Below, in pieces: positions 1 to 61,236 of a stretch of DNA of 64,000 nt. The notes under the pieces were generated by a model. That model made no database searches, had not been told where the DNA came from, and saw only the letters and a program-made list of their open reading frames with translations. Both the position numbers and the translations under genes were made by a program. Each line of letters begins with the position of its first letter. The stretch's first letter is position 1. Source of the DNA: Raja brachyura (lineage: Eukaryota). Location: the NCBI GenBank assembly GCA_963514005.1, contig OY740791.1:51956001-52020000 (forward strand), written 5' to 3'.

Positions 1-212
1 TTCCCAAGAGCATCAGTGACACATAGAATGGTGAAGTTTCAATATTTACCCAGGGGCACGGTTATCCCAGGGGCAATATCCCCAGGCACTGCACCACAGC
101 AGAGCCTTCCACACGGGCTGTGAAGGAAGAGTGAATACTGGCAAATTGTGCAATGTGACATCAAAATGTGATCCTGATTCTAAGTATGAAGAGCAAACCC
201 TGAGTCACTTAC

Positions 213-473
213 CACTGGGTTCCTGATAGTACGGGACTAAAAGCCGGGGCAGGTCTTGATGAAACAAACCGCATCTCCAGTTTCCTCTGCCTCTTTCAGC
301 TTTCTGAATAACCAGACTCAGGGATTTCTCTTCCACAGTCAGTGTCTTTTCTCCAACACTTTTGCCATCGCCATCGATCCAAACCAGTCTCATTGACTCG
401 GTAACGTGAGACACAGAGCAGGTCAGGGTAATGTTGTCTCCCTCATTCACTGCATCAGACGGCTCAGCTGTGA
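213..473 (-). CDS. Gene 1 exon: Ig C2-type domain D4 (WxC type); gene continues beyond the left edge
   Basis: Acceptor tttccacag, donor G|GTAAGT, 261 nt, phase 1-1, open. VTAEPSDAVNEGDNITLTC...LVW...GNWRCGLF: B-strand Cys, C-strand Trp, F-strand WxC. Confidence 0.9.
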
Positions 474-551
474 CTGTGGAAACAAACAGGTTGTTTACAC
501 TTTTAACAATTAATTCATCAGTAAAAACAGTGGCCGCATTCTGTCTCCTAC

Positions 552-893
552 CTTTCACTGTGATTAGATCAATGGTGAGAAATAGATATGTTCCCTCTAA
601 ACATTTGTAAACTCCGGCATCTTGAAACAAAACTGGGACAATTCTCACACTAACATCCTTGCCATTGAAGTGTTTCACTGAGGTCATCAGTCGATTCCTG
701 AAAGTGGCCTTGCTGACATTGATGGGTTGATAGAGTGTTGCTGATGCTATTACTTCCTCCTGGTCTTTTAGGTGACTAAATTTCCAGATCCACACTTCAA
801 AACCCATCTCGTAAGGAAGCCGATAGCAAACCAGCTGGACTTCACTGTGATCTGTGCTGGAGCGGTAAAGTGTGTGACGTTTGCCGTACATGT
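552..893 (-). CDS. Gene 1 exon: Ig V-type domain D3
   Basis: Acceptor tctctgctgtag, donor G|GTAGGA, 342 nt, phase 1-1, open. EVQLVC...WIW...DAGVYKC V-set motifs. Confidence 0.9.
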
Positions 894-1885
894 CTACAGC
901 AGAGAGACAAAAGAATAGAACTCCTTTCAGCATCACAGTTACTGAGGCACAGGGGTAATCAGGTAAAAGTTCCCACACAGATTTTTATTACAATTATTTG
1001 TGTTTTGTTCATCTGATAAGTTTCAAAATGTGACTTCTTGCATGGATTCCACACCATAAACACGTCAGGTTTTTCTAAAAATAACACATATGTCCGGCAC
1101 AATACACATACCAGGCCACCATCTCCCAGACTGTCACTGATCTCATCATCTCTGGCGATCACCCTGCCACAGCCTCCAACCTAATCGTCCACCAGCCCAT
1201 TTATATCTCCTTCTGAAACTCCACAAATAGGGCAGCCCTGGCAGACCCGTTATTTCTGCCTACCCCTTCCCCACATAAATCATTTCTTCCTCTTGTCCAG
1301 TCCCGGAATGGTGAACGTCTTCTGACCATCTCACTCACCCTCATACAGAACCAGCATGCTGCAAACATCAGCCCTACCCCACTCTCTGTCACATTCCTCT
1401 GTCCACCAGCTGCATCCTTCCTCTCTTTGCATCCAATCCCACCCTTCCCTTCATTCCCATAATTCCCTTCACCCCTCTCTCATTCACACCCATTGATTCC
1501 CACCCTTCCTTCTTCCTGGGTCCTGCTCCCAGCTGAATTCTGATCTGAAGCTGGTCTGGAGCAGCTGGAATTACTTCAATCAGAAGAAAAGTCCTGACCC
1601 AAAACATCACCTATTAATGTTTTCCAGTAATGCCCCACCGAGTTACTCTTACTAAACATATAGAATTCATTCTTTCGGTATTGTGTATCTGCCAAACAGA
1701 GATAAACAGGCAGCTGCTCCACAGGGAGACTTTCTGGAAGCTTCTCCCTGAACACTGAAGCATTTTGTACAAGAGAGCTTTTGGCCATGAACTACAATTC
1801 TTCACGGGGTGCACACATGATGTTATAATAAGCACCAATGGTACAAGTGTATGTTCAATATCTAATATGAGGTATTGACACGTAC

Positions 1886-2155
1886 CTGCTATGACATTAA
1901 AATTGCCATTACTTGTCTGAATGATTTTTCCATTTTCCTGCACTTCACAGACATACAGCTTCCCACCCTCCACTGTAACATGTCGGATCATCAGATAGAC
2001 CGTGTTATTCAGGCGGATCTGATCAGTGTTGCTCATGTTCTGCTGGGATGAGTCCATTGGTCTCCAATGAAGACTGACTGTACCTGAGAGTCTGGAGATG
2101 GTGCAGCTGAGTGTGACGTCACTGCCCAGCAGAGGGTGCTGTGGACTTGCCTCAA
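1886..2155 (-). CDS. Gene 1 exon: Ig C2-type domain D2
   Basis: Acceptor tttttcacag, donor G|GTACGT, 270 nt, open. GSDVTLSC...LHW...LYVCEV. Confidence 0.9.
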
Positions 2156-2475
2156 CTGTGAAAATCAGATCAATGAGATTAAGAGAGAGTAGTGGTGTGT
2201 ACAGTCCAATGAATGGGCTCAACCTCACCTCAGCTGAAAACCTAGACATAGAGACTGAAGAACAACTTATTTCCCAGTGGTATCCGACTCTTGAACCAAT
2301 CACCACCTTCACTCACACTTCCTGGTGGTACTGTCACGTGTTCTGGCAGTTATTGCACTTTAGTTTTATTTTGCGTTCATTCAGACAGCTCTGCAAACTC
2401 TGCACCGTTCTGCTGTGTTGCATTTATTGTGTTTATAGTTTCATCCGTCATTAACTTTTACATCATATTAAAATA

Positions 2476-2860
2476 ATGTTTACAAGACAATAAAACACAA
2501 CACAACCCACCACCATAATACAAGACAAACAATAAACTGTTATACAACTATCTTACAATCCTTGTCAAGGATGCATTCAACGCCCCGTGGTGCCCAGCGG
2601 TCCTGGAAATCCCCCAGAGTGTCCATAGTGAGCGCATAGTCCCTCTCCAAGACCACCCAGGCATGGACATAACCGTGGAAAAGCAGCAGGCAGCTGGCTC
2701 GGGCAGAGCCCTCTTCCGCCTAGCGCCGTGACTCGCTGGTGGCCGGCGTGGCCAGGCCAAGGAGAGAAGGTAAAAACTGGCTTTGCGGGGCTGGGAAACT
2801 ATATGGTTGCAGGGTGTGGGAAGCAGACAGCCAGAAGTGATGAAATCAGTAATGGTGTTA
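2476..2860 (-). mobile_element. Tx1/L1-like LINE 3' fragment
   Basis: Minus translation ...LLFHGYVHAWVVLERDYALTMDTLGDFQDRWAPRGVECIL resembles the Tx1 ORF2 C-terminus, followed by a T/G-rich 3' region. Shorter copy at about 56310-56510. Confidence 0.5.
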
Positions 2861-2869
2861 GCGGAGCCG

Positions 2870-4930
2870 GTCCACACCCTCAACAACTTCTCCTTTGACT
2901 CATCTCACTTCCTCCATGTCCAAGGTGTATCTATGGGCATCCGTATTGGCCCCATCTATACCTCCCTCTTTGTTTGGTATATTGAACAATCCCTGTTTCA
3001 GGCATACACTGGCCATATCCCCAAACTCTATCTTCATTATATTGATGCTGCATCATTGCTACCTCCTGCACCCACACAGAACTCATGGACCATCCACTTC
3101 ATCACCAATTTTCATCCTACATTCAAATTTTCTTGGACCATCTCCGACACCTCCTCTCCCTTTCTTGACACCACAGTCTCCATCACAAGAAATACACTTT
3201 TGACTGACGTCAATTATAAACCCACTGACTCCCACAACTATCTCAACTACACTTCTTCCCATCGTGCTTCCTACAAAGACTCTATCCCCTACTCTCAATA
3301 CTTCCTTCTACGCCGCATCTGCGCTCAAGATGAGGTGTTCCATACCACAACATACGAGATGTCCTCATTCTTTAGGCAACGGGGTTCCCCTCTCCCATCA
3401 TTCATGAGGCCCTCACTCGTGTCTCCTCTGTACCCCACAGCTCTGCCCTTGCTCCCCCTCTCCCTAGCCACAACAGAGACAGAGCCCCCCTAGTCCTCAC
3501 CTTACACACCATCAGCCGTCGTACACAACACATAATCCTCCTAAAGTTCCGCCACCACCAACGGGATCTCATCACTAGCCACATTTCCCCGTCTCCACTC
3601 CTTTCTGCCTTCCGCAGAGACTGTTCCCTCTGCAAGTCCCTGGTTATCGCATCCCTTCCCACCTCCTCCCCAGATACCGTCCCCTACAACCGCAGAAGAT
3701 GCAACACCTGTCACTATAACTCCTCCCTTGACTCTGACTAGGGACCCCGACAGTCATTTCAGGTGAGCAGAGGTATTCTTGCACCTCCTCCAACCACATC
3801 CATTGTATCGTTGATCAAGATGTGAAGTCTTTTACATCGGCGAGACCAAAGGCAGACTGGGCGATCATTTAACGGAGCACCATCGCTTAGACCACATGAA
3901 CCAACCCGATCTCCCAGTTGCTGGACACTTCAATTGTCCTACCCATTCCTACGCAGACCTTTCTGTCCTCGTTCTCCTCCATTGTCAGTGTGAAGGGCCT
4001 GTCCTACCAGCATCCGACTCCATGCGATGAGCGCGATCAAACTAGAAGCGGGGGCCGCGCAGAGGTCGGGTGATCCCCTGTACAGGGCCGTTCCCACCAG
4101 CATGCGCCTGCATGTGGCAAGCGCAACCAAACCGGCAGCGAGGGCCGCGCGGTGGTCGGGTGAGTGGCGCAACGCCGCGCAAAGTGAGGCGAACTTGGAG
4201 CGAAGTCTTAAAGTAAGTTCGCCAGGACAGAGAGGGGCACAGAGGCACACATACAGAGGGCCACGGAGCCACACACATAGAGGGTCATGGAGGCACCTAC
4301 AGATAGGTTCACGGAGGCACGATATCGAGCCGGTGTGTCATGCGTTGAGGCGACTGCGAGCCGACAAGCCGTTGCTGCGCGGAATTTTTGAACATAGTCA
4401 GATTTTCGGAGCCCCGCGCGATGTCGGGACGAACTCCGCACAATTCCGCACGGCTCCGGCGATCGAAGTGGGACCGGCCCTGCGACGCCGGACAGCTCAA
4501 GCGACCACGTTAGGTCGCGCTCATCGCACAGTTGCATGCTGGTAGGACAGGCCCTTGAGGCTAATTGCAAATTGGAGGAACAACATCTCATATTTCACTT
4601 GGGCAGCTTACAGCCCAGTGATATGAATATTGGTTTCTCTCACTTCAGGTAGCCCTGCATTCCCTCACTCTCCATCCCTCCCCCACCCTATTCACACTAG
4701 CTTCTCATTTTCACCCTACAAAGAGCTTACAATGGCCTATTTCCTTTATCATCGTCACTTTTTTGTATATCTTTCATTCATTGTTCTTTATCTCTCCACG
4801 TCGCCGTCTATATTTCTCGTTTCCATTATTCCTAACCAGTCTGAAGAAGAAGGATCACAACCCGAAACGTCACCCGTTCCTTCTCTCCAGAGATGCTGCC
4901 TGTCCTGTTGAGTTACTCCAGACACTTTTT
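2870..4930 (+). mobile_element. Degenerate Penelope-like retroelement (RT + GIY-YIG remnants), interrupted by a MITE
   Basis: ORF 2783-3493 gives LNNFSF..QGVSMG..YID..FLD..YKPTDSHNYL (PLE-type RT). Downstream FYIGETKGRLGDH..EH is GIY-YIG-like. Typical tail ctgaagaa..cccgaaacgtcac..gagttactccag. Confidence 0.8.
3994..4555. mobile_element. Non-autonomous DNA transposon (MITE), PIF/Harbinger-like
   Basis: Perfect 20-bp TIRs AGGGCCTGTCCTACCAGCAT (3994-4013; 4536-4555) flanked by a 3-bp TGA duplication. Absent at the paralogous site near 56921. Confidence 0.85.
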
Positions 4931-5450
4931 GTGTCCATTGGCAGTGCTGTGGCTTGCTGGTCACTGTTTAAATGAGGACATTTCTTTTTGTAGCAAGGGA
5001 AGATTGTAATCTTAGTTGCATTATACTGCATTTATTTTTGTAAAGTTTATTATAATAATAAACTATACAATATATTATTTCTATTGACGTCATTATATGG
5101 CTACTAATGATATTATCATTATTTCTATTGTTGTCATTACAAGGCTACAAATGATATAATAATTATTGTATCAGTTATTTCTGAGTTAGTCTTCTCCCAT
5201 TGATTTTGGTTCCTACTGGCAACTGTTGTATTGTGGAATTAATTTGTGGAGCGTATAAAAGTCCCCTGGTGGACATGTTGAGTTACCTGCTACTGCGATT
5301 GTCTGTGATCAAAGAAAAGTGAAGAAACTAACTGTAGCCCCATTATTACCCACAGCCCAGAGTGACTGGAATACTCTCATCAAAACATAGGTTTACACGT
5401 GACATTATTTACAGTGAAACACATTATTGATCCGTGTCTCGCCCACTCAC

Positions 5451-5789
5451 CTTTGATCCCAAATATTTCATATTGTTTCAGGATTTGCTTCATCGGCTGT
5501 GTTTTAGTCAAAGTGAAGAATCCCGCCCATTTAAATGCGTTGTTTTTTATTATCAGATTACAAGTAGTGGCATCCACATCCACCTCCTGGTTCTTGTCTC
5601 TATCTCTCCAGCCATCGCCCCACTGGATGGTCCAATGTTTGTCCACTCTGCTGCCAGTTAACACTGTCTGGATTCCCTGCCCTGAGTGTGGTTCCCATTC
5701 CCAAACAACAATGCCACTCTCAGGATTGTCCGGTCCTTTTAACGTAATGTTGCCTCCATTATCCAAGAAATGAATCAGATTTCTCTTTT
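5451..5789 (-). CDS. Gene 1 exon: N-terminal Ig V-like domain D1 lacking canonical cysteines
   Basis: Acceptor ctttccaacag, donor G|GTGAGT, 339 nt, open. GGNITLKGP...VVWEW...NLIIK...WAGFFTL. Confidence 0.85.
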
Positions 5790-6234
5790 CTGTTGGAAAG
5801 AGGAGCAATGAAAGAATTTAGAACACATTTCCTCCACCCATGTCAGCAATTATTAATTTTGAATTCTATTTATTTCCAGAAAGTTTTGATCTTCCTCAGA
5901 AAAGACCTGAAGTGCTGGAGTAATCAGCGGATCAGGCAGCATCACCGGGGAACACGGATAGGTTACGTTTTGTGTCAGAAGCCTTCATCAGACGCCTGTG
6001 TACCCGAAGGTTCCTTATCTGAAATGTCACTTATCCATATTCACCAGAGGTGCTGTCCGACCTGCTGAGTTACTACAGCACTTTGTGTTTTTCATTCCCT
6101 GTGAAGCATTGACTGAGAAATAGATTGTCGGAAGGTGGATAAGCGAGTTCAGTATTCCGACTGCGCATGCCCAGTTCATAGTTCACTAGCAATAAAGTCG
6201 GAGGTGCTGCATTGTGCGCAGACTTGCGTTTTGT

Positions 6235-6760
6235 CCTTGAGCTGGCGGGGCAGCCCTGGACTTTCAGCCGCTGCCTCCAGTTCGACTCTGCCGGGTTGGT
6301 CAGCAGCCCTCCACCACCACCCCGCTCCCCTTAGTATGACACCGAGATCCTGTTGAAGATGGGCAGCCGCCGGCTGGATGAAGTGGCAGCGGGTACCGTA
6401 GGGGCAGAGCTCAACTCGGCCAGGCCGTGGACGAACTGGCACTTGTCGCCGTAGTGGCCCATCAGGGAGCGGGTTCCTGTGGAGTTGGAGTGGGGTTGGG
6501 CTGGAGTTGGCGCTGGCTGTGGTTCTGTGGGTTCGTTCTGGTAGTGGGCCTGGGGGGCAGAGTCCCGTCAGTCTGGACGTCTCCAGCCGCCCCCCGAGCG
6601 GGGATGGGACATTCGATTGGGGGAGAGTGGTGAGAACGAGGGACGGTCCAGTAGCGGTTATGCAGCGCTTGCATTTTTGCAGCGTTTGTGGTTGCGGGGA
6701 CACGGGTTTGATCCTGGCTGCAAACGAGACGCGGTTCTCCGGATGAGAGCCGGTCCAGTC
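6235..6760 (-). pseudogene. ZFP36/TIS11-family CCCH zinc-finger processed fragment in intron
   Basis: GC-rich island encoding HYGDKCQFVHGLAEL then, frameshifted, LCPYGTRCHFIQ. These match the two TIS11 CCCH fingers with an internal deletion. Confidence 0.7.
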
Positions 6761-7618
6761 TATCCCCCCCCCCCCCCCCCCCCCGGTCTCTAGGGCTTTA
6801 TTTCCTTCGTGTTTCGATAGTTCATTATTCTAGGTAAGGAAATACTGTTTTAAAACTATGTACAAAGATGCAATGTTTTTCTAATTTTTATTGGTTCATG
6901 CCTCCGTGAGTGAGCGAGATCACGAAGATAAATGACACACTTTTTTTTCCTTGAGGGTGGGGGAAATAAAATTAAATGTATGATTTCTATAACTTTCAAT
7001 AGACTTTAAGGAGTTATTTGGACGGATTTAAATTGCTGCAACTACAGCAAGAGCTACAAGTATAGATTTTCTTCCCATATTTTTTAACCCCCTTCTTCGC
7101 TAAAAAAAATATTCAAAGCTTTGACTTTCCATGACATTAAATCTTCCAGCTTCATATCTTGGAACTTTGAATCAGCCATGACAAATAGAAGCTAAAAAAA
7201 AGACAAAAAAATCGGACCAAACGTATACTCACTGTATCTATAGCGCTGAGATCTATTTACTGTTAAAGCTTACGACCTTTGACAAATCCCATGATTCCTT
7301 GCGTTTTTCGGAATACCGAACTAGCTTATTGTCTGAGCTGCAGAAGGGAACTGTGCGGCAGCGTGCAGAATCATTGCGGGTGATTCTTGGGCAGCGAATT
7401 CTGCAACAAGCTGACAGGTCGGAATCTCTCTCTGAGGGGAGGCAGCTGATGGGAGGGGTGCAGAAATGGAGCTCCAACAAGAATGGCATGGATTTGTGAT
7501 GCAGCAGCACATTCAGGGATGTGGAGAGGAAAGTGAGATTGACAATGGGGTGCGGGTTTACAAGGACAATGATAAAGTAAAGCAAGGTGATTGTGACCGG
7601 TGAAGAGAAAGCACTTAC

Positions 7619-7706
7619 TCTGTGTGGAAACAGATCGAAGCAGGAAAAGAAAGACTCCGAACATCAAACCAGTTGGCAAACTGCTGCAGAGAAACCTCGG
7701 CCTCAT
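7619..7706 (-). CDS. Gene 1 leader (signal peptide) exon
   Basis: ATG at 7706, MRPRFLCSSLPTGLMFGVFLFLLRSVSTQ, phase-1 donor A|GTAAGT. Acceptor tttcccacag 12 nt upstream of the ATG implies a non-coding exon 1. Confidence 0.85.
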
Positions 7707-10381
7707 TTTGTGGATTCCCTGTGGGAAATAAAGTGCAGTTTTAGACTTAGCCTGTCCGAGACACATATCTTCAGCACATTTGGACTACAAGTTAATCGGA
7801 CACTGAAGGTGGCAGTACAAGTAGATAGGGTAGAAAATAATGTGTATTGGATGCTTGCTTTCAATACTAAGGCCATTGAACACCAAAGGCAGGAAGTCAT
7901 GATGCAGCTCTATAGGACTGGCAAAGAAAAAAGGAGTTGAACATTTTCCATTTTTTAATGTTTCCATTAAATGTGGACACTTCCAGGCCATCCTGAATTA
8001 CCCTTCAACTGACCCAATTGTGAGTCACTTCAGAGTCACCCACATTATTGTGCCCCATGCCCATGTACAGCACAGATTGTATAAGGACAGCATGTTGTCT
8101 CTCCTTGAGGATGCTGGTGATACAGAGCCAGGATTCTGTTTACTTGTTTCTAAAGACAAACCTTCAAATGCATTATTTTTGTTCTGGTGCTGCCCACTCT
8201 GGGTCAAAGGCTGGATTATGAGAATAGGAACATTGCCCCATGTCCCATACACTGTTACTATGCTGAGGAATAAAACAACGATATGACAAAGAGAGGTCCA
8301 TCTTGGAATGGGGCTGATTGACCCTTTCCAGACTGCAGGATAACGTGCTGAGGGACGCATTGAAGCTTGGTGCAGCCAACTTATAGACTCTGTTAGGGAG
8401 GATCATTGTCTTGAGTCCTTCCGCTGCTGGACGTTGAAGATTCATGGGTCACCCATAGAAGGGAAGGGATATCACCCAAGGGGTGGCAAATGACAGTCAA
8501 TGGTGTATTGTGTAAAGTTAGGTGCAAACACCACTGAGTGTGACACTATTAATCGTATAGACATCAAGAGTGTTTGTGTTAGTTTTGTATAGAAATATGG
8601 AACTGCAGATGCTGGTTTACCAAGGAAAGACATAAAATACTGGAGTAACAGTGTGTCAGGCAGCACTCCTGGAAAACAAGAATAGTTTCGAGTTGGGACC
8701 CTTCAGACTAGTTTCGTATATATTCTTTATTCTGAAATAAAGTTTATTTTTGAAAAATAAAAAAATGTCAGGTTTGAAGGGTGCAAGGATTCTGCCGTTC
8801 CCCATATCACATTCAGAACCTGATGCAAAATTCTGAGAAATGGTCAAGGCTGCATGAAGAGCTGTCTTGCAATTTAACCACAATGATTCGTCTATTCTGG
8901 GCTGTTTCTCTTCCTGATTTTTTATCTCAACTAAATTTCACAATGCGTCAATAAATATCAGAAGTGTGAAGGACAAAGAAAACATCAAACCATCCCAAAA
9001 CCTTATTGAAACATGCAAAAGAGAATTAGGGGTGGATTATTTGTCACTTTGAGCCTGTTTAATCATTCAAAACAATCTCATATTCCAATTTTTTCCTGAT
9101 AGATTTTGATGCATTTTATGTCAAAAAAATCAATCCCCTACTTAACAAGATTCAGTAACCTGCCATCCACCATTTTCTGTGGGGTGAATTTCAATGGCTC
9201 ACCATGTTCACAATGAAGAAATTTCTCAGCCCTAAACTTCTCACCCCTTATCTTGAGTCCAAAACCCCTTCTTCCAGATCCTACAGTCACTGGAAATATC
9301 CTTGTGTATTGGGTCTGTCTAGCTCTGCTTTGAATTTTGTTTAATTTGGAGAGGTCTTGTTTAAGTCTTTCAAACTCCAGTGACTACTGGCTCAGTTACC
9401 CCCTCCTCGCCTTACACATTATTCCTGCCATTCCAGGAATCAGTCTGGTCTGCCTTGGCTGCATTACCTCTGTGGCTGAAAATCCCTTTCTCCGGTAAGG
9501 GGAGCACAAAGACCTGTCTGGGGAAACATGGGCCAGGCGCAGCCAATTGTGATGGGGTCAGTTGGACATCTTGGTCAGCATGTGTATGTTGGGTCGATGT
9601 GTCTATTTCCATGCTGTACAGCTCTCTGACTCTCTGCTGCATCTGTGTATATTTGACAGGTAACTCAACTGACTGAGATCGCCTGGAAACCTCTTTGCAT
9701 CCTCATTGCTTCTCCCATTTACTCTCAGTTTCATGTTATCAAACTTAGAAACATTAAAATTGTTTCCTTGTCAATACCATTGATGAACATTGAAAGTCAT
9801 TCTTCAGTTGCGAATGGTCATCTGTTCATTTACTTCCACAGAGGATTCCTGATCAGTAAATTCCCTCCAGCAATTTGCTCTTTGCTCATGTTTCCAGAAT
9901 CTGCAAACCATTGGGTCTCCACATCTTCAACTTTATCTATTCTACATGGTACAACACAATAATCTCTAATAGATCTGTTTGCCATGATTTTGCTTACATA
10001 AATTCAAAAAGACTTTGTCTTATCGCATAAATTATTGTTAAATATCCAAACACTGTTTTGCAACCCGGAAACACCAAACCAGGTTGGAGATTGAAACATT
10101 TTCATCCAGCAGGTAGCAAACAGGAAATTTAATATGTCAAAAAGAATAAAGAGCCGTCATTTAGTTGAAACACGGCTATTTTAATTTTTAATCAGTAGGA
10201 AATAGCAAAAATATGAAAAAAACACAATTTTTCGTTAACCCCAACAATGCAATAGGAGAAGACATTTAAAAATAAAATTTGAAGAAGTACATCAATTTAG
10301 CAAATTACATTGTCAATCATTTAATCCCGTCCAATTAATCCACTTTAAAGCAATGAAGAATAATATTTGAAGTTTACTGAC

Positions 10382-10664: not shown

Positions 10665-11334
10665 TTGATCATATCTGATGGATTTCTAATGGGAGAGCTC
10701 CAGGTGCTTTGTTGCGTTCTGCTGGGTGTGTGAAGTAATGAGTGGCTAAGAGAGAGTACAAGCAGTCCAGGGAGGTCCTGCCACTGTGATGAAAAACTCA
10801 CACTGCTACATCCATGAGGTGTTGTGTTCATTAACATGCTGGCAATTACATCGCACCCATTGGGACAAACTGAACCATTTCCAGAGAGGATTGGGGACAC
10901 TGTGTGGGAGCACCTTCAACAAAAGGATTGCAGAACATCAAGAAGGCAGCTCACCATCACCTTCTCTTAGGCAGTTAGTGATGGATGTTAAAATATTAAT
11001 TTTACTTCGGAGTCACGTGAGTGACTACGTGAAGAACCCCGTACAGCCGTTCGTGCGTCATTGCGTCAGACGTTTTTCGTGCAGACGACTGTGGAGCAGC
11101 GCAGCTCCTCCATGGTAAGTCTAAAAAAGTTGCAGGTAAGTGTTATTTTTCTTACCTGTTCTAGGTCTCTGCAGGAACCTCCGGGGTTTTTTGCAGTGGA
11201 TGTTCGCGATAGCTGAAGAGGGAACCAGCCGAGGGCTTTGGGGGAAAACCTTGGTCCGACCGCAGAAGCGGAGAGCTGGGAAAGTCAGGTTCGCGATCGG
11301 AGTCACTGATAACGCGGTCAGTGACTCCACACGT

Positions 11335-11825
11335 TGGGTTCCCGGGTAGGGGAAACCCAAGAATAGTGCGGTTTTAGACCGCAGTAGTCCCTAGGGGATG
11401 GGGCTTAACGGACCTGAACGGTCTGCCTGGGTTCCCGGGGAGGATAAACTCAAGCATATGCGGTTCTAGACCGCAGTAGTCCCGGGGACATTGGGTAAAA
11501 CTAGCTTAAATGGTTAAGCTGGGTTCCCGGTGCAGGGGAAACCCAAATATATGCGGTTTATATCGCAGTAGTCCCCAGCGCATGGGGTTAAAACAAACCT
11601 AAAGGTTAGGCTGGGTTCCCGGTGCAGGGGAAACCCAGGTATATGTGTGGTTCCCAGACCACAGTAGTCCCCAGGTAATGGGGTTAATTCACATAAATCA
11701 TTAGCCTGCGTGCCATGAGGGTACCGTGGGTATATATTTATATATATTATATTTATATGGATTCCTGGTGAGGGGAAATTCACCTATGGGGTTCTCAAAC
11801 TACAATAATCCCCAGGATATGGGGA
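11335..11825 (+). repeat. About 92-bp tandem repeat (4 full copies + 1 degenerate) of multi-hairpin units inside the DIRS element
   Basis: Units start at 11335, 11428, 11520, 11612 and about 11758 with TGGGTTCCC...GGAAACCCA...TGCGGT...ACCGCAGTAGTCCC. Confidence 0.85.
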
Positions 11826-11892
11826 CAACTGACAAAATAGTCAGTACAATTGGGAAAGTTGGGAGATTTCACCTCTAGGAATTAATTTAGAG

Positions 11893-12402
11893 AGCAGCAC
11901 TTTTGGGTAGGGCTGCTTCATGGGAATGTCAAGTTATGGCAGTGCCAGCCTATGGGAAAGGCTGTGTCAGCAGTACCTTTGTTTAGGACTGCTAATGGGG
12001 ATGCCAAGCTATGGTAGGCTAGCCTGATGGAGAGGCTGTGCCAGCAGTACCTTTGCTCAGGACTGCTCATGGGGATGCCAAGCTATGGCAGGCTAGCCTA
12101 TTAGAGAGGCTGTGCCAGCAGCACCTTTGCTCAGGGCTGCTCATGGGGATACCAAACTATGGCAGGCTAGCCTATTGCAGAGGCGGTGCCAGCAGTACCT
12201 TTGCTCAGGACTGCTCTAAGGGAATGCCAAGTTATGGTAGGCTAGCCTATTGGAGAGGTTATGCCAGCAGCACCTTTGCTCAGGGCTGCTTGATGAGAAT
12301 GCCAAATCTATGGCAAATACTGGGCTATGGGAAAGTCCGGGCCAGCAGCTACTTTGTTCAGGGCTGCTTCATGGGCACCAGGGGTACCTTGTTAGGGCTG
12401 CT
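11893..12402 (+). repeat. About 74-76-bp tandem repeat (about 7 copies) of triple-hairpin units inside the DIRS element
   Basis: Units start at 11893, 11969, 12043, 12117, 12191, 12266 and 12344: AGCAGYACCTTTGCTCAGGRCTGCT...TGCCAAGCTATGGCA...AGCCT..AGGCT. Confidence 0.9.
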
Positions 12403-15400
12403 TTATGGGAATAGCAGTTTAGTAGGGTATTCCCATTCACAGTGATCATGGGGGATGAGGAGGCATTGTTAGGATAAGGCAATATAACAGAATGATGACA
12501 AAAGTATTCAAAGAAAACTATACACAGTTTAAAAGCGCTTGTGCTAAAATCCGCTGTCTAGTCTCAAAATATATTTGAGAAATTGGGCTCCTCTATCCAG
12601 TTAGATTAAGTCCTATCAAATAGATTTGTAGGATGTTGGGATTTACTTTTAGGTATTCAATTGGCCATGATGCCGGCCTAGGCAACAGATTGCAGTCAAT
12701 AAGACTTTGGTAACAGTTGTTGGTATAAAACAGTTCTAGTCGTTGGACTAATTGTTAAGTGCATAGATGCAATTCAGGTGTGTAAGTAGTGCAACAGTTA
12801 TTTTGTTAAATGGTTAATTAGTAAGTGCCATCTAGGTCATTGTTAACACCAGCTGAAATTAATAATGTCACGATGATGGACAAACAGTGTTCATTACTGC
12901 TCTAGTAGTTGTTAGGTAAACCTTTTGTTCTATTGCAAATTGGTGCTAATGGCCTAAATGGGAAATGGTGTCAGCAGGGCTTTGTAGCAGGCCTGCTTTA
13001 TGGCTCCCTCATGTAAGAGGTGAGCATGTGGGATTGGTATAGTTTAACGCCGAGTCTGAGGGTATAGCCATAGAGCATGCCCAAGAGATCGGGGCATGTG
13101 CCAGAGGTCTATGCCTGGCAAGAAAGTTACCATCCCAAACACAATATGCAGTGAACACCGCTCTGAGGGGGACATTACAGTTGGCTGCCGAATCCTCTAT
13201 TCAGGTAAGACTTTTCCATAGGTGTAACCTGGAGGGCGAAGCACAAGCTATTGGAACAAGCAAGGTTTCATAGTTTTGGCAACAATGCATCCCATGTATT
13301 TTTTGGCAGTAGCGGTTCACTGAAGTTGCTGGCAGCATGAAAGCTGGCCAGAGGTTCCACGCACTGGACTTGTGCTACTCTACAATTAAGGGACCACTTG
13401 CAGTTTGGTAAGGTGTATACTTAGTTATACAGTACAAATGATTGAGACATTATCAGCTACTTTGAACGGTAAATGTAAAATGTACAATATTGGTTTTCAA
13501 GCAGGTTAGAATTGGACAGGTTCAGTATAAGGACCAAGATTGTCTTGCTAGACTGGCTTGGAAATCGGGCCACAGTTGCTATTTAAGGTAGTTACCAAGT
13601 AGCTGAAAGATCATCTCGAGTTTGGAGATGGAACAGATTTGCATGACTTGCCCAAAAAGTTCTGTTATTAGTATCAACTATTTATAGACTCTACGGGCAT
13701 TGTATGGGCTATAGAGTGATTGGACAAATAAGCATATTGTCATGCTCAGGTTGATGCATTGTGTTGGCATATGTTAGTCACGAGGGTGCAATCGGTTAAA
13801 GAATCACTGGAATGGTTACATAATTTTGTTGCCATAGGAGAATCATCAAGTGTGGGTAATGGCAACACAGTTGGTGTTGAATCGCACTGTATTATGAAAT
13901 TCTGGTTCAATGGAACACCTGATATGAATATATGTATATGTGTATACATATGTATGTTGGTTTCATGTTTATTTCACTGGTTGCAAAATAGTTGGCATAG
14001 CAGTGGCAAAAGATACATTCTCGCCAAAAGGAGCAGGTGGGTCTTTTATGGCTACCTCCATTTTATCTCATCAATCGAGGTTTCAAATAAAGTCATTAAG
14101 AGGCTTTAAGTTCCTATTGTGTGATTATGCAAATTGATTCCTGATTTGTTGCGAATAATTATATAACCTTATTGGTTATTTTAAACTTGAATTTGCTTGT
14201 TCAGCCTGAGGTTTCGGAAATCAGATGTTGCATGATAAACTCAAATTTATGTTCTGCAGGTCTAACAAACTGTCCTAAGGTTTGGGTTGTTACATCTATC
14301 CTTCTATGTGTTCAAAGTGTTTGCATAGCACCAAACGGCTGAATTTCTTTTCCAGGAGATGAAAGAGTTTGTTATGCTTATGTTCCATGGAAAATGGTAT
14401 TGATTGCTAATGTTTCGAGTTCATGCTAAATGATTGTCTGTTACTTATGGAGTTATACGGCCATTAATTGACTCGATGAGCTTCCTCATTGAATTGGCTG
14501 TAACAAACAAGACTCGCTGTCGGGTCCACACCGGTTATCAAGGGGTAGGATATCTTCAACATAGGTCCCAGGACCAGTATAATGCCATATGCGATGTTGA
14601 TATTTGTGAACACTATTTCACCAGGAGGCAGCAACTATATCCTTAAATTTGGCTGGAGTTTATTAGGTAGTTATCCTTCTGGCACTGGTTTAGTGCAGCA
14701 GGTTCAGTCGCTAAATAATTGTGATGGTACAGGATGATAATGTCTATAAATTATAATATATAATATGTTATAAATACTTGAGCAGACCAGAAGGGGGTCA
14801 GGTCTCAAAATAGTCACAGGCATACCAGGGGACCTTTGATAAGGTAAGCACACATGTATACAACAATATGTCAAGGTCATCAAGAGCCTTGGAGTTCTGG
14901 ACTAGCAATGTTGTTGGTCACAAAGAATTTGGGAGAACGTATTGTTCATGGCATTCCAGATGAGGAAAACGGAGTTGTGTTATGTACTAATGGATTCTGT
15001 TTCCAGATCTCATTCCACCAGGGCTGCTACAACATCAGCAGCAAGGGTATTTATGTTCCGCTGGGTCGCATTGTTGCGGCTGGAGTATGGTCCATCGAAT
15101 GAATCTCCAAACATCTGTAATGACCCATTGGTGAACCAGGAGTATTGTTAACTCTATTTATGTTCTGGTTATATGTTCCATCTGGGTGAGAGATGGAAAT
15201 ATTATTGTTTCATTTAAACAGCATCAGCATGTTTTACATCTCTGTTATGACTGTATGCATTATGAATGTTTTCCCTTCATTTGTCAATGAAGCAGCTGTG
15301 GTTGTGTATACTCATTTCACACGGCATGAAATCACAGAGCTTTGAAGTCTTCACGTAGTCACTCGCGTGACTCCGAAGTAAAATAGTAAGATTAAACGAG

Positions 15401-16147
15401 AACTTACCAGTTTGAAGTTTGATCTTTATTTTATGAGGAGTCGAGGGACTACGTGCCCTCCGCTCCCAGCCCTCATAGATTTCATCTGGTAGTTCTAGTC
15501 TTTATCTTACATTATACTTCAGTTATTATTTGCTGTGATTTCACACCTTTGCTTTGAAGATTGACGCACGAACGGCTGTACGGGGTTCTTCACGTAGTCC
15601 CTCAACTCGACTCCTCATAAAAATAAAGATCAAACTTCAAACTGGTAAGTTCTCGTTTAATCTTACTATTATCTGCCACAATTTATTCCAATCACTGACA
15701 ATGACACTTGAGCTGATCTGTCTGTTAGTTATTATCCTTATAATAAATGCATCCTCAGCACACATGCCCCATGTTCTGTTCTCAAAGTATTTTTTAAATT
15801 ACATAAATAAACTGATAGGGAATTACTTTTACTGTTAATGTAAAGGGTAAATAGAGAAGTTGTTTCTGTAGATAACGTCAGCGTAAAAGAGGAAGGATCT
15901 GCTTTAGGCCTTGTTTACATTTCTGCTGTGAAACTCGGCAAGTGTCACTGGTGATCACAGTGTTTAGAATGTGAGAGTGATGGACAGTGTTGTATGGAGG
16001 GGGAGATGAATTATGAAGAGATAGATTCAGGAGCTGCGTAAAAATATCAAAACAGAGTGTTAGCAGCAATAAAAATGAATTGTATTTCTCTCCAGAATTC
16101 ACACAATATGGGGGAATTGAGTCGTTAACCTTGATTAAGGAAGGAGT

Positions 16148-52428: not shown

Positions 52429-53903
52429 TTATGAATGTGTGAATTCAGATTATTGAACATATGGTTTGGGGGAAGAGTTTGAGAGGAGCTCAGACAAATG
52501 ATGGTGTGGGGAGATTGTATGGACATTTCATAGTCTCCCAGATTATTCAAACCTTTAATGAGAAAAGTGGAGGGAGGGCTTGGTAACCCAACATTGACCA
52601 ATGAAGAAGGGGCAGAGGAGGGCAGGTTTATTTGCAAACAACCAGCAGCCATGACCAATCATCGATGGCAACAGGAGACAGAAGGTGATGACAGAGAGTT
52701 GTTTTTGCACCTGGATGCCTGTTACTGACGGTGACTAATGGTGTCCCACAATGATTGGTCCTGGGACCTTGTTGTGTCTAATCTACACAAATTTCTTAGC
52801 AGTGGATTTGGGAGGCAAGATTAGTGAAGTTGTTGATAGTGTGGACAGTGGTCTTATTCTGCAGAGAGATGTCAATGTGTTGGTGGAATATGCTGGGAAA
52901 TGAAAGATGGATCTTAATCCAGTCATTTGTGAGGTGATGTGCCTCCCCTTTATTCTAAGGCTGTGGCCCCTGGTTTTGGACATATACCATGAATTATAAG
53001 GTCTGACAAAGTATTGAGGAACAGAGGGACATTGGAGTACATACATTGATCCTTGAACGTGAAAACACAAGTACATAATGTGGTTGGAAAGGCATATGGG
53101 ATAGTGTGTTCATCAGTCAGGACATTGATCACAGAAGTAGGGAAGTTATGCGGCAGATGTGTAAACTTTGGTCAGGCCTCAGCTGGAGTACTGTATGCAG
53201 TCTGGTCACCAAATGATGGGAAGAATGTGATAGCACTGGAGAAGGTATAGAGAAGATGGACAGGATGCTACCTGGGTTGGAGCTAATGAGTTCTGAGAAG
53301 AGATTAAAGAAGCAACATTCATTCTCCCTGGAGTTGAACTCCCTGGAGTTGAGGGGACATTATTGACATGTATAACTGGTCAACATGGGTGAAATGGGTA
53401 AGTGGCCCATTCCAATGCTGCATGATTCTATGTTTGCACAGTTTGTAACACCACAGGTGGCAGGACTGCTTATGTAAACAGCGTTCCCCATCCAGGTATC
53501 CTGAACACTCCAGGGTCCAGCTGTGCTCAGGGTGAGGAGGACCTGTGAGATGGTCTCTCTGTGTTCAGTATCAGTCAGTATGGGATGATGGACAGTGGGC
53601 AGTGAATCTGGCAGCGGAATTGGTCCACGGTTCAATGGAAAGGTCCTGTTTTGCTGACAGGACCCAATGCTTATCCCAGCTCTGTCACTTTCCCAAGAGC
53701 ATCAGTGACACATAGAAAGGTGAAGTTTCAATCTTCACCCAGGGGCACGGTTATCCCACGGTCCATATTCCCAAGCACTGCACCACAGCAGAGCCTTCCA
53801 CACGGGCCGTGAAGGAAGAGTGAATACTGGCAAATAGTGCAATAAGTGACATCAAAATGTGATCCTGATTCTAAGTATGAAGAGCAAACCCTGAGTCACT
53901 TAC

Positions 53904-54164
53904 CAGTGGGTTCCTGATAGTACGGGACTAAAAGCCGGGGCAGGTCTTGATGAAACAAACCACATCTCCAGTTCCCTCTGCCCCTCTCAGCTTTCTGAAT
54001 AACCAGACTCAGGGATTTCTCTTCCACAGTCAGTGTCTTTTCTCCAACACTTTTGCCATCACCATTGATCCAAACCAGTCTCATTGACTCGGTACCGTGA
54101 GACACAGAGCAGGTCAGGGTAATGTTGTCTCCCTCAGTCACTGCATCAGACGGCTCAGCTGTGA
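53904..54164 (-). CDS. Gene 3 exon D4, C2-type (WxC)
   Basis: 261 nt, phase 1-1, open; paralog of 213-473. Confidence 0.9.
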
Positions 54165-54242
54165 CTGTGGAAACAAGCAGGTTGTTTACACTTTTAACAA
54201 TTAATTCATCAGTAAAAACAGTGGCCGCATTCTGTCTCCTAC

Positions 54243-54587
54243 CTTTCACTGTGATTAGATCAATGGTGAGAAATAGATATGTTCCCGTTGAACATTTGTA
54301 AACTCCGGCATCTTGAAACAAAACTGGGACAATTCTCACACTAAAATCCTCGCCATTTAAGTGTTTCACTGAGGTCATCAGTCGATTCCTGAAAGTGGCC
54401 TTGCTAACATTGATGGGCTGAGAGAGTGTTGCTGATGCTATTACTTCCTCATGGTCTTTTAGGCCACTAAATGTCCAGGTCCACACTTCAGAATCCTCCT
54501 CGGAACCAGGAAGCCGATAGCAAACCAGCTGGACTTCACTGTGATCTGTGCTGGAGCGGTAAAGTGTGTGATGTTTGCCGTACATGT
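54243..54587 (-). CDS. Gene 3 exon D3, V-type
   Basis: 345 nt, open. EVQLVC..WTW..DAGVYKC. Confidence 0.9.
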
Positions 54588-55579
54588 CTACAGCAGAGAA
54601 ACAAAAGAATAGGACTCCTTTCAGCATCACAGTTACTGAGGCACAGGTGTAATCAGGTAAAAGTTCCCACACAGATTTTTATTAAAATTATTTGTGTTTT
54701 GTTCATCTGATAAGTTTCAAAATGTGACTTCTTACATGGATTCCACACCATAAACACGTCAGGTTTTTCTAAAAATAACACATATGTCCGGCACAATACA
54801 CATACCAGGCCCCCATCTCCCAGACTGTCACTGATCTCATCATCTCTGGCGATCACCCTGCCACAGCCTCCAACCTAATCATCCACCAGCCCATTTCTAT
54901 CTCCTTCTGAAACTCCACAAACAGGGCAGCCCTGGCAGACCCGTTATTTCTGCCTACCCCTTCCCCACATAAATCATTTCTTCCTCTTGTCCAGTCCCGG
55001 AATGGTGAACGTCTTCTGACCATCTCACTCACCCTCATACAGAACCAGAATGCTGCAAACATCAGCTCTACCCCACTCTGTCACATTCCTCTGTCCACCA
55101 GCTGCCTCCTTCCTCTCTTTGCATCCAATCCCACCCTTCCCTTCATTCCCATAATTCCCTTCACCCCTCTCTCATTCACACCCATTGATTCCCACCCTTC
55201 CTTCTTCCTGGGTCCTGCTCCCAGCTGAATGCTGATCTGAAGCTGGAGTCTGGAGCAGCTGGAATCACTTCAATCAGAAGAAAAGTCCTGACCCAAAACA
55301 TCACCTATTAATGTTCTCCAGTAATGCCCCACTGAGTTACTCTTACTAAACACATAGAATTCATTATTTCGGTATTGTGTATCTGTCAAACAGAGATAAA
55401 CAGGCAGCTGCTCCACAGGGAGACTTTCTGGAAGCTTCTCCATGAACACTGAAGCATTTTGTACAAGAGAGCTTTTGGCCACGAACTACAATTCTTCACG
55501 GGGTGCACACATGATGTTATAATAAGCACCAATGGTACAAGTGTATGTTCAATATCTAATATGAGGTATTGACACTTAC

Positions 55580-55849
55580 CTTCAGAGAGACTAAAATTGC
55601 CGTTACTTATCTGAATGATTTTTCCGTTTTCCTGCACTTCACAGACATACAGCTTCCCATCCTCCACTGTAACATGTCGAACCATCAGGTAGACCGTGTT
55701 CTTCAGGCGGATCTGATCAGTGTTGCTCATGTTCAGCTGGGATGAGTCCATTGGTCTCCACTGAAGACTGACTGCATCTGAGAGTCTGGAGATGGTGCAG
55801 CTGATTGTGACGTCACTGCCCAGCAGAGGGCGCTGTGGACTTGCCTCAA
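55580..55849 (-). CDS. Gene 3 exon D2, C2-type
   Basis: 270 nt, open, donor G|GTAAGT. Confidence 0.9.
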
Positions 55850-56509
55850 CTGTGAAAAACAGATCAATGAGATTCAGAGTGAGTAGTGGTGTGTACAGTC
55901 CAATGACTGGGCTCAATCTCACCTCAGCTGAAAACCTAGACATAAAGACTGAAGGACAACTTCTTTCCCAGTGGTTTCCGACTCTTGAACCAATCATCAC
56001 CTTCACTCACACTTCCTGGTGGCGCTGTCACGTGTTCTTGCAGTTATTGCACTTTAGTTTTATTTTGCGTTCATTCAGACAGCTCTGCAAACTCTGCACC
56101 GTTCTGCTGTGTTGCATTTATTGTGTTTATAGTTTTATCCGTCATTAACTTTTACTCAATGAGTTTCATGTGAACAAAGAATGTAATTGCATCCTGGTGT
56201 TTATGACAATAAACTCATCTGAACCAGTATTGTTCTACACAGTTACGTTGTTGCTGTTTGACACTTTTTTAAATGTTTTTAAATCAAAATAATTAATTCA
56301 AATATTAAAATAATATTTACAAGACAATAAAACACAACACAACCCACCACCATAATACAAGACAAACAATAAACTATTATACAACTATCTTACAATCCTT
56401 GTCAAGGATGTATTCAACGCCCCGTGGTGCCCAGCGGTCCTGGAAATCCCCCAGAGTGCCCATAGTGAGCGCATAGTTCCTCTCCAAGACCACCCAGGCA
56501 CGGACATAA

Positions 56510-57295
56510 CTAGCCACATTTCCCCATCTCCACTCCTTTCTGCCTTCCGCAGAGACTGTTCCTTCTGCAACTCCCTGGTTATCTCATTCCTTCCCATCCT
56601 TCCCACCCCCTCCCCAGATACCGTCCCCCACAACCGCAGAAGATGCAACACCTGTCACTATAACCTCTGTCCAGGGATCCCAACAGTCATTTCAGGTGAG
56701 CAGAGGTTTTCTTGCACCTCCTCCAACCACATCCACTGTATTGTTGTTCAAGATGTGGAGTCTTTTACATCGGCGATACCAAAGGCAGACTGGGCGATCA
56801 TTTCACGGAGCACCATCACTTAGACCACGTGAACCAACCTGATCTCCCAGTTGCTGGACACTTCAATTGTGTTACCCATTCCTACACAGACCTTTCTGTC
56901 CTCGTTCTCCTCCATTGTCAGTGAGGCTAAATGCAAATTGGAGAAACAACATCTCATATTTCACTTGGGCAGCTTACAGCCCAGTGATATGAATATTGGT
57001 TTCTCTCACTTCAGGTAGCCCTGCATTCCCTCGCTCTCCATCCCTCCCCCATCCTATTCACACTAGCTTCTCATTTTCACCCTACAAAGAACTTACAATG
57101 GCCTGTTTCCTTTATCATCGTCACTTTTTTGTATATCTTTCATTCATTGTTCTTTATCTCTCCACGTCGCCGTCTATATTTCTCGTTTCCATTATTCCTA
57201 ACTGGTCTGAAGAAGAAGGATCACAACCCGAAACGCCACCCGTTCCTTCTCTCCAGAGATGCTGCCTGTCCTGTTGAGTTACTCCAGACACTTTT
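56510..57295 (+). mobile_element. Penelope-like fragment (deleted paralog of 2870-4930)
   Basis: CSRCGVFYIGDTKGRLGDHFTEH. Lacks the MITE and about 900 bp present in copy 1. Confidence 0.75.
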
Positions 57296-57806
57296 TGTGT
57301 CCATTGGCAGTGCTGTGGCTTGCTGGTCACTGTTTAAATGAGGACATTTCTTTTTGTAGCAAGGGAAGATTGTAATCTTAGTTGCATTGTATTGCATTTA
57401 TTTTTGTAAAGTTTATAATAATAATAAACTATACAATATATTATTTCTATTGAAGTCATTATATGGCTACTAATGATATTTTAATTATTTCTATTGTTTT
57501 CATTATAAGGCTACGAATGATATAATAATTATTGTATCAGTTATTTCTGAGTTAGGCTTCTCCCATTGATTTTGGTTCCTACTGGCAACTGTTGTATTGT
57601 GGAATTAATTTGTGGAGCGTATAAAAGTCCCCTGGTGTACATGTTGAGTTACCTGCTACTGCGATTGTCTGTGATCAAAGAAACTAACTGTAGCCCCATT
57701 ATTACCCACAGCCCAGAGTGACTGGAATATTATCTTCATAACATAGGGTTGCATGTGACATTATTTACAGAGAAACACATTATTGATCCGTGTCTCGCCC
57801 ACTCAC

Positions 57807-58145
57807 CTTTGATCCCAAATATTTCATATTGTTTCAGGATTTGCTTCATCGGCTGTGTTTTAGTCAAAGTGAAGAATCCCGCCCATTTAAATGCGTTGTT
57901 TTTTATTATCAGATTACAAGTAGTGGCATCCACATCCACCTCCTGGTTCTTGTCTCTATCTCTCCAACCATCGCCCCACTGGATGGTCCAATGTTTGTCC
58001 ACTCTGCTGCCAGTTAACACTGTCTGGATTCCCTGCCCTGAGTGTGGTTCCCATTCCCAAACAACAATGCCACTCCCAGGATTGTCCGGTCCTTTTAACA
58101 TAATGTTGCCTCCATTATCCAAGAAATGAATCAGATTTCTCTTTT
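57807..58145 (-). CDS. Gene 3 exon D1, V-like domain lacking canonical cysteines
   Basis: 339 nt, open; differs from gene 1 D1 by 2 aa. Confidence 0.88.
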
Positions 58146-58597
58146 CTGTTGGAAAGAGGATCAATGAAGGAATTTAGAACACATTTCCTCCATCCATGTC
58201 AGCAATTTTTAATTTTGAATTCTATTTATTTCCAGAAAGTTTTGATCTTCCTCAGAAAATACATGAAGTGCTGGAGTAATCAGCGGATCAGGCAGCATCT
58301 CTGGGGAACACGGATAGGTTACGTTTTGTGTCAGAAACCTTCATCAGACGCCTGTGTACCCGAAGAAGATTCCTTACCTGAAATGTCACTTATCCCTATT
58401 CACCAGAGGTGCTGTCCGACCTGCTGAGTTACAACAGCACTTTGTGTTTTTCATTCCCTGTGAAGCATTGACTGAGAAATAGATTGTCGGAGGGTGGATA
58501 AGCGAGTTCGGTATTCCGACTACGCATGCCCAGTTCATAGGTCACGAGCTATAAAGTCGGAGGTGCTGCATTGTGTGCAGACTTGCGTTTTGTCCTT

Positions 58598-59190
58598 GGT
58601 CAGGGTCAGGGTCAGGGTTGGGGGTGCTCTTGTTGCTGCAGGGCCGTTCCCTCGACGGTGTCCCGTCCAGGTCTGGAGGTGTGCAGGGTGGCCTTGAGCT
58701 GGCGGGGCAGCCCTGGACTTTCAGCCGCTGGCTCCAGCTCGACTCTGCCGGGTTGGTCAGCAGCCCTCCACCTCCACCCCACTCCCCTTAGTCTGACACC
58801 GAGATCCTGTTGAAGATGGGCAGCCGCCGGCTGGATGAAGTGGCAGCGGGTACCATAGGGGCAGAGCTCAACTTGGCCAGGCCGTGAGCGAACTGGTACT
58901 TGTCGCCGTAGTGGCCCATCAGGGAGCGGGTTCCTGTGGAGTTGGAGCGGGGTTGGGCTGGAGTTGGCGCTGGCTGTGATTCTGTGGGATCGTGCCAGTG
59001 GTGGGCCTGGGGACGTCTCCAGCCGCCCCCCGAGCGGGGATGGGACATTCGAGAGGGGTGGGAACCGGGGACGGTGCAGTGGTGGTTATGCAGCGATTGC
59101 GATTCGTCTGCATTTGTGGTTGCGGGGATCCTGGCTGCAAACGAGACGAGGTTCTCCGGATGAGCACTGGTCCAGTCTCCACCCTCCCCC
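58598..59190 (-). pseudogene. ZFP36/TIS11-like processed fragment (paralog of 6235-6760)
   Basis: HYGDKYQFAHGLAKL and LCPYGTRCHFIQ. Confidence 0.7.
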
Positions 59191-59604
59191 CCCCAACCCC
59201 CCGATGTACAAAGCTGCAATGTTTTTCTCATTTTATTGGTTCATGCCTCCGTGAGTGAGCGATGTCGCGAAGATAAATGACACGCATTTTTTTGTCTTGA
59301 GGGTGGGGGGAATGAAATTAAATGTATGACAGTGTATGGGAAATCTGGCATCTTTGGACTGATTTAAATAGTTCCAGCTACAGCAAGAGCTACAGTACAG
59401 CTTTTCTTCCCATATTTTTTAACCCCTTCTCTGCTAAAAAAAATCTTCAAAGCTTTGAATTTCCATGACATAAAACCTTCCAGCTTCATACATTGGAACT
59501 TTGAATCAGCCATGACAAATAGAAGCTAAAAAAAAGACAAAAAATCGGACCAAAAGTATACTCACTGTTTCTATAGTGCTGAGATCTATTCACTGTTATA
59601 GCTT

Positions 59605-60822: not shown

Positions 60823-61148
60823 CCTTGCGTTTTTCGGAATACCGAACTCACTTATTGTCTGAGGCAGTATGAGGGTACTGTGCATAAGCGTGAAGTGAAG
60901 ACATTGCAGGTGATTCTTGGGCAGCGACCTCTGCAACAAGCTCACAGGTGGGAATCTCTCCCTGAGGGGAGGCAGCTGATGGGAGGGGTGCAGAAATGGA
61001 GCTCCAACAAGAATGGCATGGATTTGTGAGGCAGCAGCACATTCAGGTATGTGGAGAGGAAAGTGAGATTGACAATGGGGTGCGGGTTTACAAGGACAAT
61101 GATAAAGTAAAGCAAGGTGATTGTGACCCGTGAAGAGAAAGCACTTAC

Positions 61149-61236
61149 TCTGTGTGGAAACAGATCGAAGCAGGAAACCAAAGACACCGAACATCAAACC
61201 AGCTGTCAAACTGCTGCAGAGAAACTTCGGCCTCAT
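61149..61236 (-). CDS. Gene 3 leader (signal peptide) exon
   Basis: ATG at 61236, MRPKFLCSSLTAGLMFGVFGFLLRSVSTQ, donor A|GTAAGT. Confidence 0.85.

Follow-up and report, generated by a model that had tools for sequence, protein, structure and literature searches.

The window analyzed here is a 64,000-nucleotide stretch of the Raja brachyura genome (contig OY740791.1, positions 51,956,001 to 52,020,000), and it contains a whole, non-autonomous DIRS1-like element of 4,672 bp on the plus strand (10999..15670). From left to right, the element consists of a left terminus, a leader, two tandem arrays of predicted hairpins, a decayed coding part, an internal complementary region (ICR), and a right terminus. 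A segmental duplication with 85-97% identity, which includes Ig-domain exons, occupies 1-10106 and 53690-63899 of the same window. The LINE content resembles that of a cartilaginous fish.

Ends, coding remnants, and spread of the element

The left terminus, which includes the left inverted terminal repeat (ITR), spans 10999..11060, and the right ITR together with the right extension spans 15562..15670. The ITRs are 43 nt long (11018-11060 and 15562-15604) and show 98% pairing. The ICR (15348..15455) is complementary to both ends of the element and spans their junction: 10999-11035 pairs with 15348-15384 over 37 nt (97%), and 15620-15670 pairs perfectly (100%) with 15382-15432 along 51 nt, with the two matches overlapping at a 3-nt junction. 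The ends are of the NTT type, with ATT at the start and the finish, which is the commonest form among the DIRS1-like elements in Table 3 of PMC3266345. The ICR was 72-79% identical to the ICR/terminus region in 11 of 47 DIRS1 metagenome loci (E <= 0.004), most of which are partial and all of which are from other hosts; the loci had been gathered by a recombinase-motif scan, and the ICR/terminus match was obtained independently of that motif. By its ends and its recombinase remnant, the element is DIRS1-like.

At 15374-15437, the ICR is 75-79% like invertebrate-type DIRS1 loci (L009, L028, L022, and L020). According to Table 3 of PMC3266345, ATT ends are found in molluscan and cnidarian DIRS1 elements, and GTT or TTT ends in those of fish and frog. 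The invertebrate-like ICR and the ATT ends make horizontal transfer of the element a possible scenario.

The leader (11061..11334) has two splice-donor-like sites upstream of the first array. Within 11112-11141, an ATG is immediately followed by the splice-donor consensus at 11115, and the second donor lies at 11136; a GTAAGT donor like that at 11115 was present in only one (L014) of the eight intact-type leaders. A 12-bp hairpin at 11299-11328, just 5' of the first array unit, occupies the slot that stem 4 has in the units described below.

The coding part is heavily decayed. Over 12400-15399, a single reading frame contains 52 stops in its 1000 codons, and in a Pfam search of this region nothing reached the cut-off, the recombinase included. 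With frameshift-tolerant profiles, we found a shredded tyrosine recombinase remnant at 14451..15094 on the plus strand, with its HSTR motif at about 15011 (81.6 bits, versus 22.1 ± 1.9 in controls); this score covers 227 profile positions, and its HSTR part is circular because the reference loci were picked by the HSTR motif. A faint, frameshifted putative remnant of late pol, comprising the end of RNase H and the methyltransferase, was found on the plus strand at 13675..14276 (45.2 bits versus 25.3 ± 3.2 in controls, and 28.2 versus 20.2 ± 2.1 with a second, deeper profile). With stricter gap costs, the recombinase remnant alone stayed above the controls; the methyltransferase remnant exceeded them only at lenient gap costs, and its strand and place were as expected. 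Profile scores for gag and RT within the element were at control level, with profiles that derive from invertebrate-type relatives and that very old traces could escape. Two RT-like stretches picked out by eye, near 12490 and 13100, scored no better than controls.

The element is not autonomous, as intact gag, RT, and RNase H are absent, and the DIRS-type non-coding host proposed in the preliminary description of this DNA was thereby borne out. The termini and the ICR retain 97-100% complementarity but the coding frames are shredded, so the insertion is probably later than the coding decay. A protein predicted on an ENA contig is 100% identical to a shredded frame along 62 residues, and a second protein reaches 98% along 58; this contig, which carries the same shredded frames, is possibly the same locus in another animal. 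A phmmer search with the recombinase fragment of the window returned three matches, of which two were shredded frames, near-identical, and the third was an unrelated repeat protein. None of 17 candidates matched this fragment, no related locus was found with it, and the Atlas gave no usable match. The dead pol/recombinase remnant (13675-15094) is C-poor and G/T-rich on the plus strand, with a C fraction of 0.16 versus 0.20-0.22 in eight intact loci. This composition hints at strand-biased C-to-T and A-to-G change, possibly caused by RNA editing or transcription-linked damage.

In 17 of the 24 listed runs, under eight organism labels, 49-69% of the sampled words of 10990-12450 were present. The region 10960-11890 was covered by 10,785, 8,008, 73, and 237 contigs in four runs, mostly 90-99% alike or better, where contig depth does not equal copy number. 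The flanks before 10998/10999 were mixed in these four runs (X1: 533 loose ends, agreement 0.35-0.44). With thousands of contigs and mixed flanks, this is a dispersed family. The terminus pattern had 0 matches in viral, metagenome, and genome contigs. In all four runs, loose ends at 10999-11039 followed the left terminus for its first 37-40 nt and then ran on in at least two other ways. Other DIRS families appear to share this left-terminus tip, and they are candidates for helpers of the element.

Two arrays of predicted hairpins in the gag slot

Array 1 (11335-11846) consists of five plus-strand units, each with four predicted hairpins, at 11335..11427, 11428..11519, 11520..11611, 11612..11706, and 11758..11846, with lengths of 93, 92, 92, 95, and 89 nt, respectively. 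Unit 5 is diverged, and a TA-rich run (11728-11758), which the contig comparison above skipped as a repeat, separates it from unit 4. Tandem Repeats Finder reported a 92-nt period at 11335-11684 (3.8 copies, 75%). The stems were defined by hand, and a model built on units 1-3 recovered unit 4 (65.7 bits) and unit 5 (44.2 bits, E 7e-9) out of sample, with no other match below E 0.1 in the window. The preliminary description had placed an array of 92-nt units with four stems at 11335..11825; the array and its stems are real, the 92-nt length holds for units 2 and 3, and the structure is larger than proposed, since it includes unit 5 to its end, a second array, and a lone hairpin.

A unit comprises stem 1 (S1; 6 bp, a bulged A, 3 bp, and a loop of the form GG...AG), S2 (6 bp), a GUAGU linker, S3 (5 bp), and S4. 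The bulged A and the fifth pair of S3 were missing from the earlier stem definitions, as was the broken upper S1 of unit 2, which is paired in many other copies; in unit 4, S4 lies outside the usual register. The linker, said to be conserved as GTAGT, is so in units 1-4 and reads ATAAT in unit 5. The G-U pair in S2 of unit 3 and the two versions of S4 (GACC/GGTC and AACCT/AGGTT) were found in the sequence as reported. The claim that the loops vary freely proved wrong: S1 loops begin with GG and finish with AG in 5 of 5 units, and all five S3 loops fit G-N-N-N-A, four of them also the narrower G-N-R-N-A. At the position of the single exception (11676), A accounts for 48% and 20% of the depth in two runs.

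The plus strand of 11290-11860 had a folding energy of -241.1 kcal/mol (z -8.61; 0 of 100 shuffles equally good) and the minus strand one of -198.9 (z -6.91), and local folding preferred the plus strand under RNA and DNA parameters alike. A sequence common to the linker and the right terminus, GTAGTCCC, was dropped; 505 of 2000 shuffled units shared an 8-mer with the termini.

Array 2 (11891..12419, plus strand) was delimited with Tandem Repeats Finder (74-nt period at 11893-12375, 6.4 copies, 81%) and unit models, and it has seven units of 74-78 nt with three predicted hairpins each. A lone eighth copy of its hairpin A lies downstream at 12973..12997 on the same strand (out-of-sample match of 20.7 bits, E 2e-4). 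Over the eight copies, all 48 lower-stem cells of hairpin A are Watson-Crick, and position 6 of this hairpin is C-G in four copies, U-A in three, and G-C in the lone one, which supplies a third pair type; none of these is in a CpG context. Hairpin C has a consensus U-G pair in 5 of the 7 units. In array 2 as a whole, 93.6% of 140 cells were paired (0 of 500 shuffles as high), and 7 cells had double changes (1 of 500 shuffles as many), with the units interrelated and unit 7 misaligned, which may inflate the double-change counts both here and in the neutral simulation below. The overall folding energy of array 2 was unremarkable (z -1.03).

Comparison with the intact-type loci among the 47 places the arrays in the slot of gag. 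One tested locus had gag-position, RVT_1/RNase H, and phage-integrase ORFs, and the named relatives of its first ORF were cnidarian or molluscan. Eight of the loci have a visible left end, and in them the gag-position ORF has its first in-frame ATG 87-453 nt from that end. The distance from the left end to HSTR is 4,012 nt in our element and 3,932-4,171 nt in seven of the eight intact-type loci (3,242 nt in the eighth). The arrays, at +336 to +1,420 of the element, thus lie where gag would be expected, as had been surmised, and the element keeps its full length with the arrays in place of gag.

No array units were found in the 47 loci (172,948 nt; best E 1.8 and 0.059), nor was any comparable 70-95-nt array. 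The arrays are therefore not a multiplied version of a signal visible in those relatives. One locus, L029, has 21-nt tandem repeats 5' of a gag-like ORF, with 10 copies at 357-565 and 7 at 1057-1207 (oriented coordinates). A search of Rfam, which the preliminary description had suggested, matched no family (best E 7.2 in 10900-12600; 0 matches at gathering score in 10900-15800). In viral contigs, the array pattern gave a single match, which was a lone chance stem, and the first recombinase-motif pattern gave three matches, with no recombinase among them.

Conservation of the stems

The hand-defined stems of array 1 contain 123 pair cells, leaving out stem 4 of unit 4, which has no stem in the usual register; 107 of these cells are Watson-Crick, 11 are G-U, and 5 are mismatched. 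Across the 260 cells of both arrays, we observed 11 paired double changes versus 1.9-2.3 expected in a neutral star-tree simulation, and 0 of 4000 runs reached 11 in each of four settings. The shortage of mismatches was significant in three of the four settings, and under the strongest mutation bias 14 were observed and 21.1 expected (P 0.06). The stems were picked by eye, the units are related (5 + 8 paralogous units make up the whole covariation sample), and the simulation assumes a star tree. We therefore regard these results as good, if not formal, evidence that the stems are kept beyond the neutral expectation.

The double changes differ in their weight. The one put forward as the showcase of compensatory change, from C-G to U-A in stem 2 of unit 4, is present, but both of its bases are in a CpG context, so the decay of methyl-C alone can produce it. 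The proposed selection on structure is weakened at this point, and it retains the excess of pairing over the neutral model. Double changes outside the CpG context, counted without hairpin C of unit 7 in array 2, occur in array 1 at pair 4 of S1 and of S3 and at pair 3 of S4, and in array 2 at pair 6 of hairpin A. The excess of G-U over A-C types (18 versus 3) would favor plus-strand RNA as the selected form; part of this excess is mutational, because the dead coding region is also C-poor. At least 11 stem variants occur among the 40 variant rows listed: seven turn a G-U or a mismatch into a Watson-Crick pair, three yield G-U (one of them only alongside a second listed variant), and the one at 11424 breaks its pair as shown.

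A possible role in helper recruitment and its alternatives

Our preferred reading, which we hold tentatively (probability about 0.4), is that the arrays, as predicted RNA hairpins in the place of gag, are repeated protein-binding signals that capture helper Gag/Pol. Transcription from the left end would give a plus-strand RNA that cannot be translated. Its short stems, selected as plus-strand RNA, would expose the conserved purine/G-rich loops, together with the bulged A, to a protein that would bind the hairpins with an avidity increased by their repetition. The RT and recombinase of the helper would then act via the intact ends and the ICR, and the element would move in trans. Helper Gag would be the likeliest ligand, given that the parasite has no Gag of its own and that Ty1 carries packaging determinants in its 5' region (at nt 237-380 of the RNA, according to PMC4974528). 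That the ligand is helper Gag, and that the unit number lifts avidity in competition with helper RNA, are the least certain parts of this proposal. As reported in PMC7192593, the RT of DIRS-1 works in trans on RNA without ORF1, with full transposition of the construct undemonstrated there; this gag-less Dictyostelium construct was reverse transcribed without an added array, so the arrays are no general requirement.

A bolder form of this reading, which we consider doubtful, is that on two occasions a DIRS1 parasite evolved RNA aptamer modules at the site of gag and multiplied them, outbidding its helper for Gag while keeping its full length. If so, particle assembly in DIRS would have its first defined cis signal in the conserved loops, and the retained length would point to size-selective packaging. 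The literature searched yielded neither a packaging signal for DIRS nor a defined cis signal by which proteins are recruited, and PMC7192593 gives the primer of DIRS RT as unknown. A non-coding family in which only the ends and the hairpins are undecayed marks candidate cis signals, with many natural variants, and the arrays provide short, testable RNA modules.

The same structural evidence, namely the double changes and hairpin A, would equally be expected if the selected hairpins recruited, instead of helper Gag, host proteins that stabilize or export a long transcript that cannot be translated. This is the leading alternative, albeit an unlikely one: the RNA is rich in stops and short ATG frames, with 33 ATG in the two arrays, and would need protection from decay, and splice-donor-like sites lie upstream of the array, but no Rfam family matched, export elements included if curated there, and the 5' placement suits known retroelement packaging regions (PMC4974528).

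It is rather unlikely that the arrays are a neutral by-product, in which slippage or RT template switching multiplied a hairpin-rich stretch while intra-strand switching and CpG decay kept the arms complementary. Single contigs do hold joints that skip about 1-4 units, transposons often contain internal tandem repeats (PMC10794571), the stem-2 change can be read as double CpG decay, and strand-biased composition can account for the G-U excess. However, the stems change around conserved loops and a conserved bulged A, and double changes occur outside CpG at the four pairs given above. Moreover, the lone hairpin, 550 nt downstream, is still paired after a double transversion, and the rest of the element interior has decayed. 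Should the neutral origin hold, the arrays would serve as a warning that apparent covariation can arise from CpG decay and template switching.

As no autonomous partner was seen in the same host, the arrays may be an inheritance and not an invention: an autonomous DIRS1 family still unseen could carry them as its ordinary leader, and the parasite would only have retained them after the loss of gag. The loose ends that reveal other families with the same first 37-40 nt of the left terminus fit such a history. We nevertheless judge it improbable, since there is no room for the arrays plus gag in an element whose length already equals that of its intact relatives, and the eight intact-type leaders are short and array-free.

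Quite improbably, the structures might act at the level of the single-stranded cDNA, whose folds would shield the intermediate or engage the recombinase. The cDNA of DIRS-1 is single-stranded and mostly linear, but it is antisense (PMC7192593), which would turn the 18 G-U types into A-C mismatches. The minus strand folds well too; the consensus U-G pair of hairpin C would nevertheless be lost on it, and the plus strand is preferred by local folding whichever parameters are used.

Tandem 5' monomers drive some LINEs, and stem 1 resembles kappaB sites; array 1 holds 15 kappaB-like sites with one mismatch each (29 per kb, versus about 2.3 outside). It is very improbable, however, that the repeats serve as promoter or enhancer monomers in double-stranded form: 0 of the 8 exact kappaB matches of the window fall inside the element, the kappaB-like matches are the same repeated arms, and duplex sites need no compensatory changes between arms. 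Hardly credible is a unit that is a self-cleaving ribozyme of unknown class, as tandem ribozymes are known in other retroelements, or that codes for a peptide repeat, a possibility that the preliminary description had raised and that the 93 nt of unit 1, a multiple of three, would allow, given that for the ribozyme no Rfam family matched, the predicted hairpins are all local, and cleavage would sever the left terminus, and that for the peptide stops occur in all frames (9, 5, and 14, and 6, 3, and 7), the profiles gave no gag signal, and single-base indels occur between units, in other copies too.

Non-autonomous DIRS-order elements, such as TOC1, and internal tandem repeats in transposons are already known. 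The DIRS1-like elements described in PMC3266345 have in common with ours the ITRs, the two-part ICR, the right extension, the ATT...ATT ends, a methyltransferase (in our element a putative remnant) followed by a tyrosine recombinase with HSTR, and a length within 3,974-6,283 bp. Our element differs from them in having no detectable gag or RT, shredded coding frames, and two structured arrays in the gag slot. TOC1 of Chlamydomonas reportedly has an internal tandem array of 76-bp repeats, an observation attributed to Day and Rochaix in 1991, and we know of no covarying hairpins or demonstrated function for that array. It too is a non-autonomous DIRS retrotransposon (bioRxiv 2022.06.16.496473 / PMC9940879), but TOC elements are of the PAT type with split direct repeats, whereas our element has ITR/ICR ends. 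The earlier remark that no such arrays had been described is thus qualified by TOC1 and otherwise stands for the literature searched, where we found no covarying multi-hairpin arrays in DIRS; Repbase, Dfam, and supplements such as Additional File 3 of PMC3266345 may describe the family. The term "tandem" had no match in PMC3266345, PMC9210276, PMC5633606, and PMC3783388.

Two further systems resemble the element in its economy or in the form of its hairpins. Conserved internal RNA structure is found in LARDs, which belong to another retroelement order; our element differs in keeping coding remnants and in that its structure consists of tandem multi-hairpin units. LARD-type LTR elements are likewise large and non-coding, with intact ends, and are mobilized in trans, as is proposed for our element (PMC6022998, PMC10794571). 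The packaging regions of Ty1 and retroviruses are likewise 5', a few hundred nucleotides into the RNA (PMC4974528). Their signals also have short stems, G-rich loops, and a bulged A, a likeness by form with no sequence match. HIV-1 SL2/SL3 and boxB GNRNA loops resemble the loops of the arrays. Such packaging signals are single-copy and reside in autonomous elements, whereas the arrays here are multi-copy and reside in a non-autonomous one. Judged by the literature searched, what appears to be new is the presence of structured multi-hairpin tandem arrays in the gag slot of a non-autonomous DIRS1-like element.
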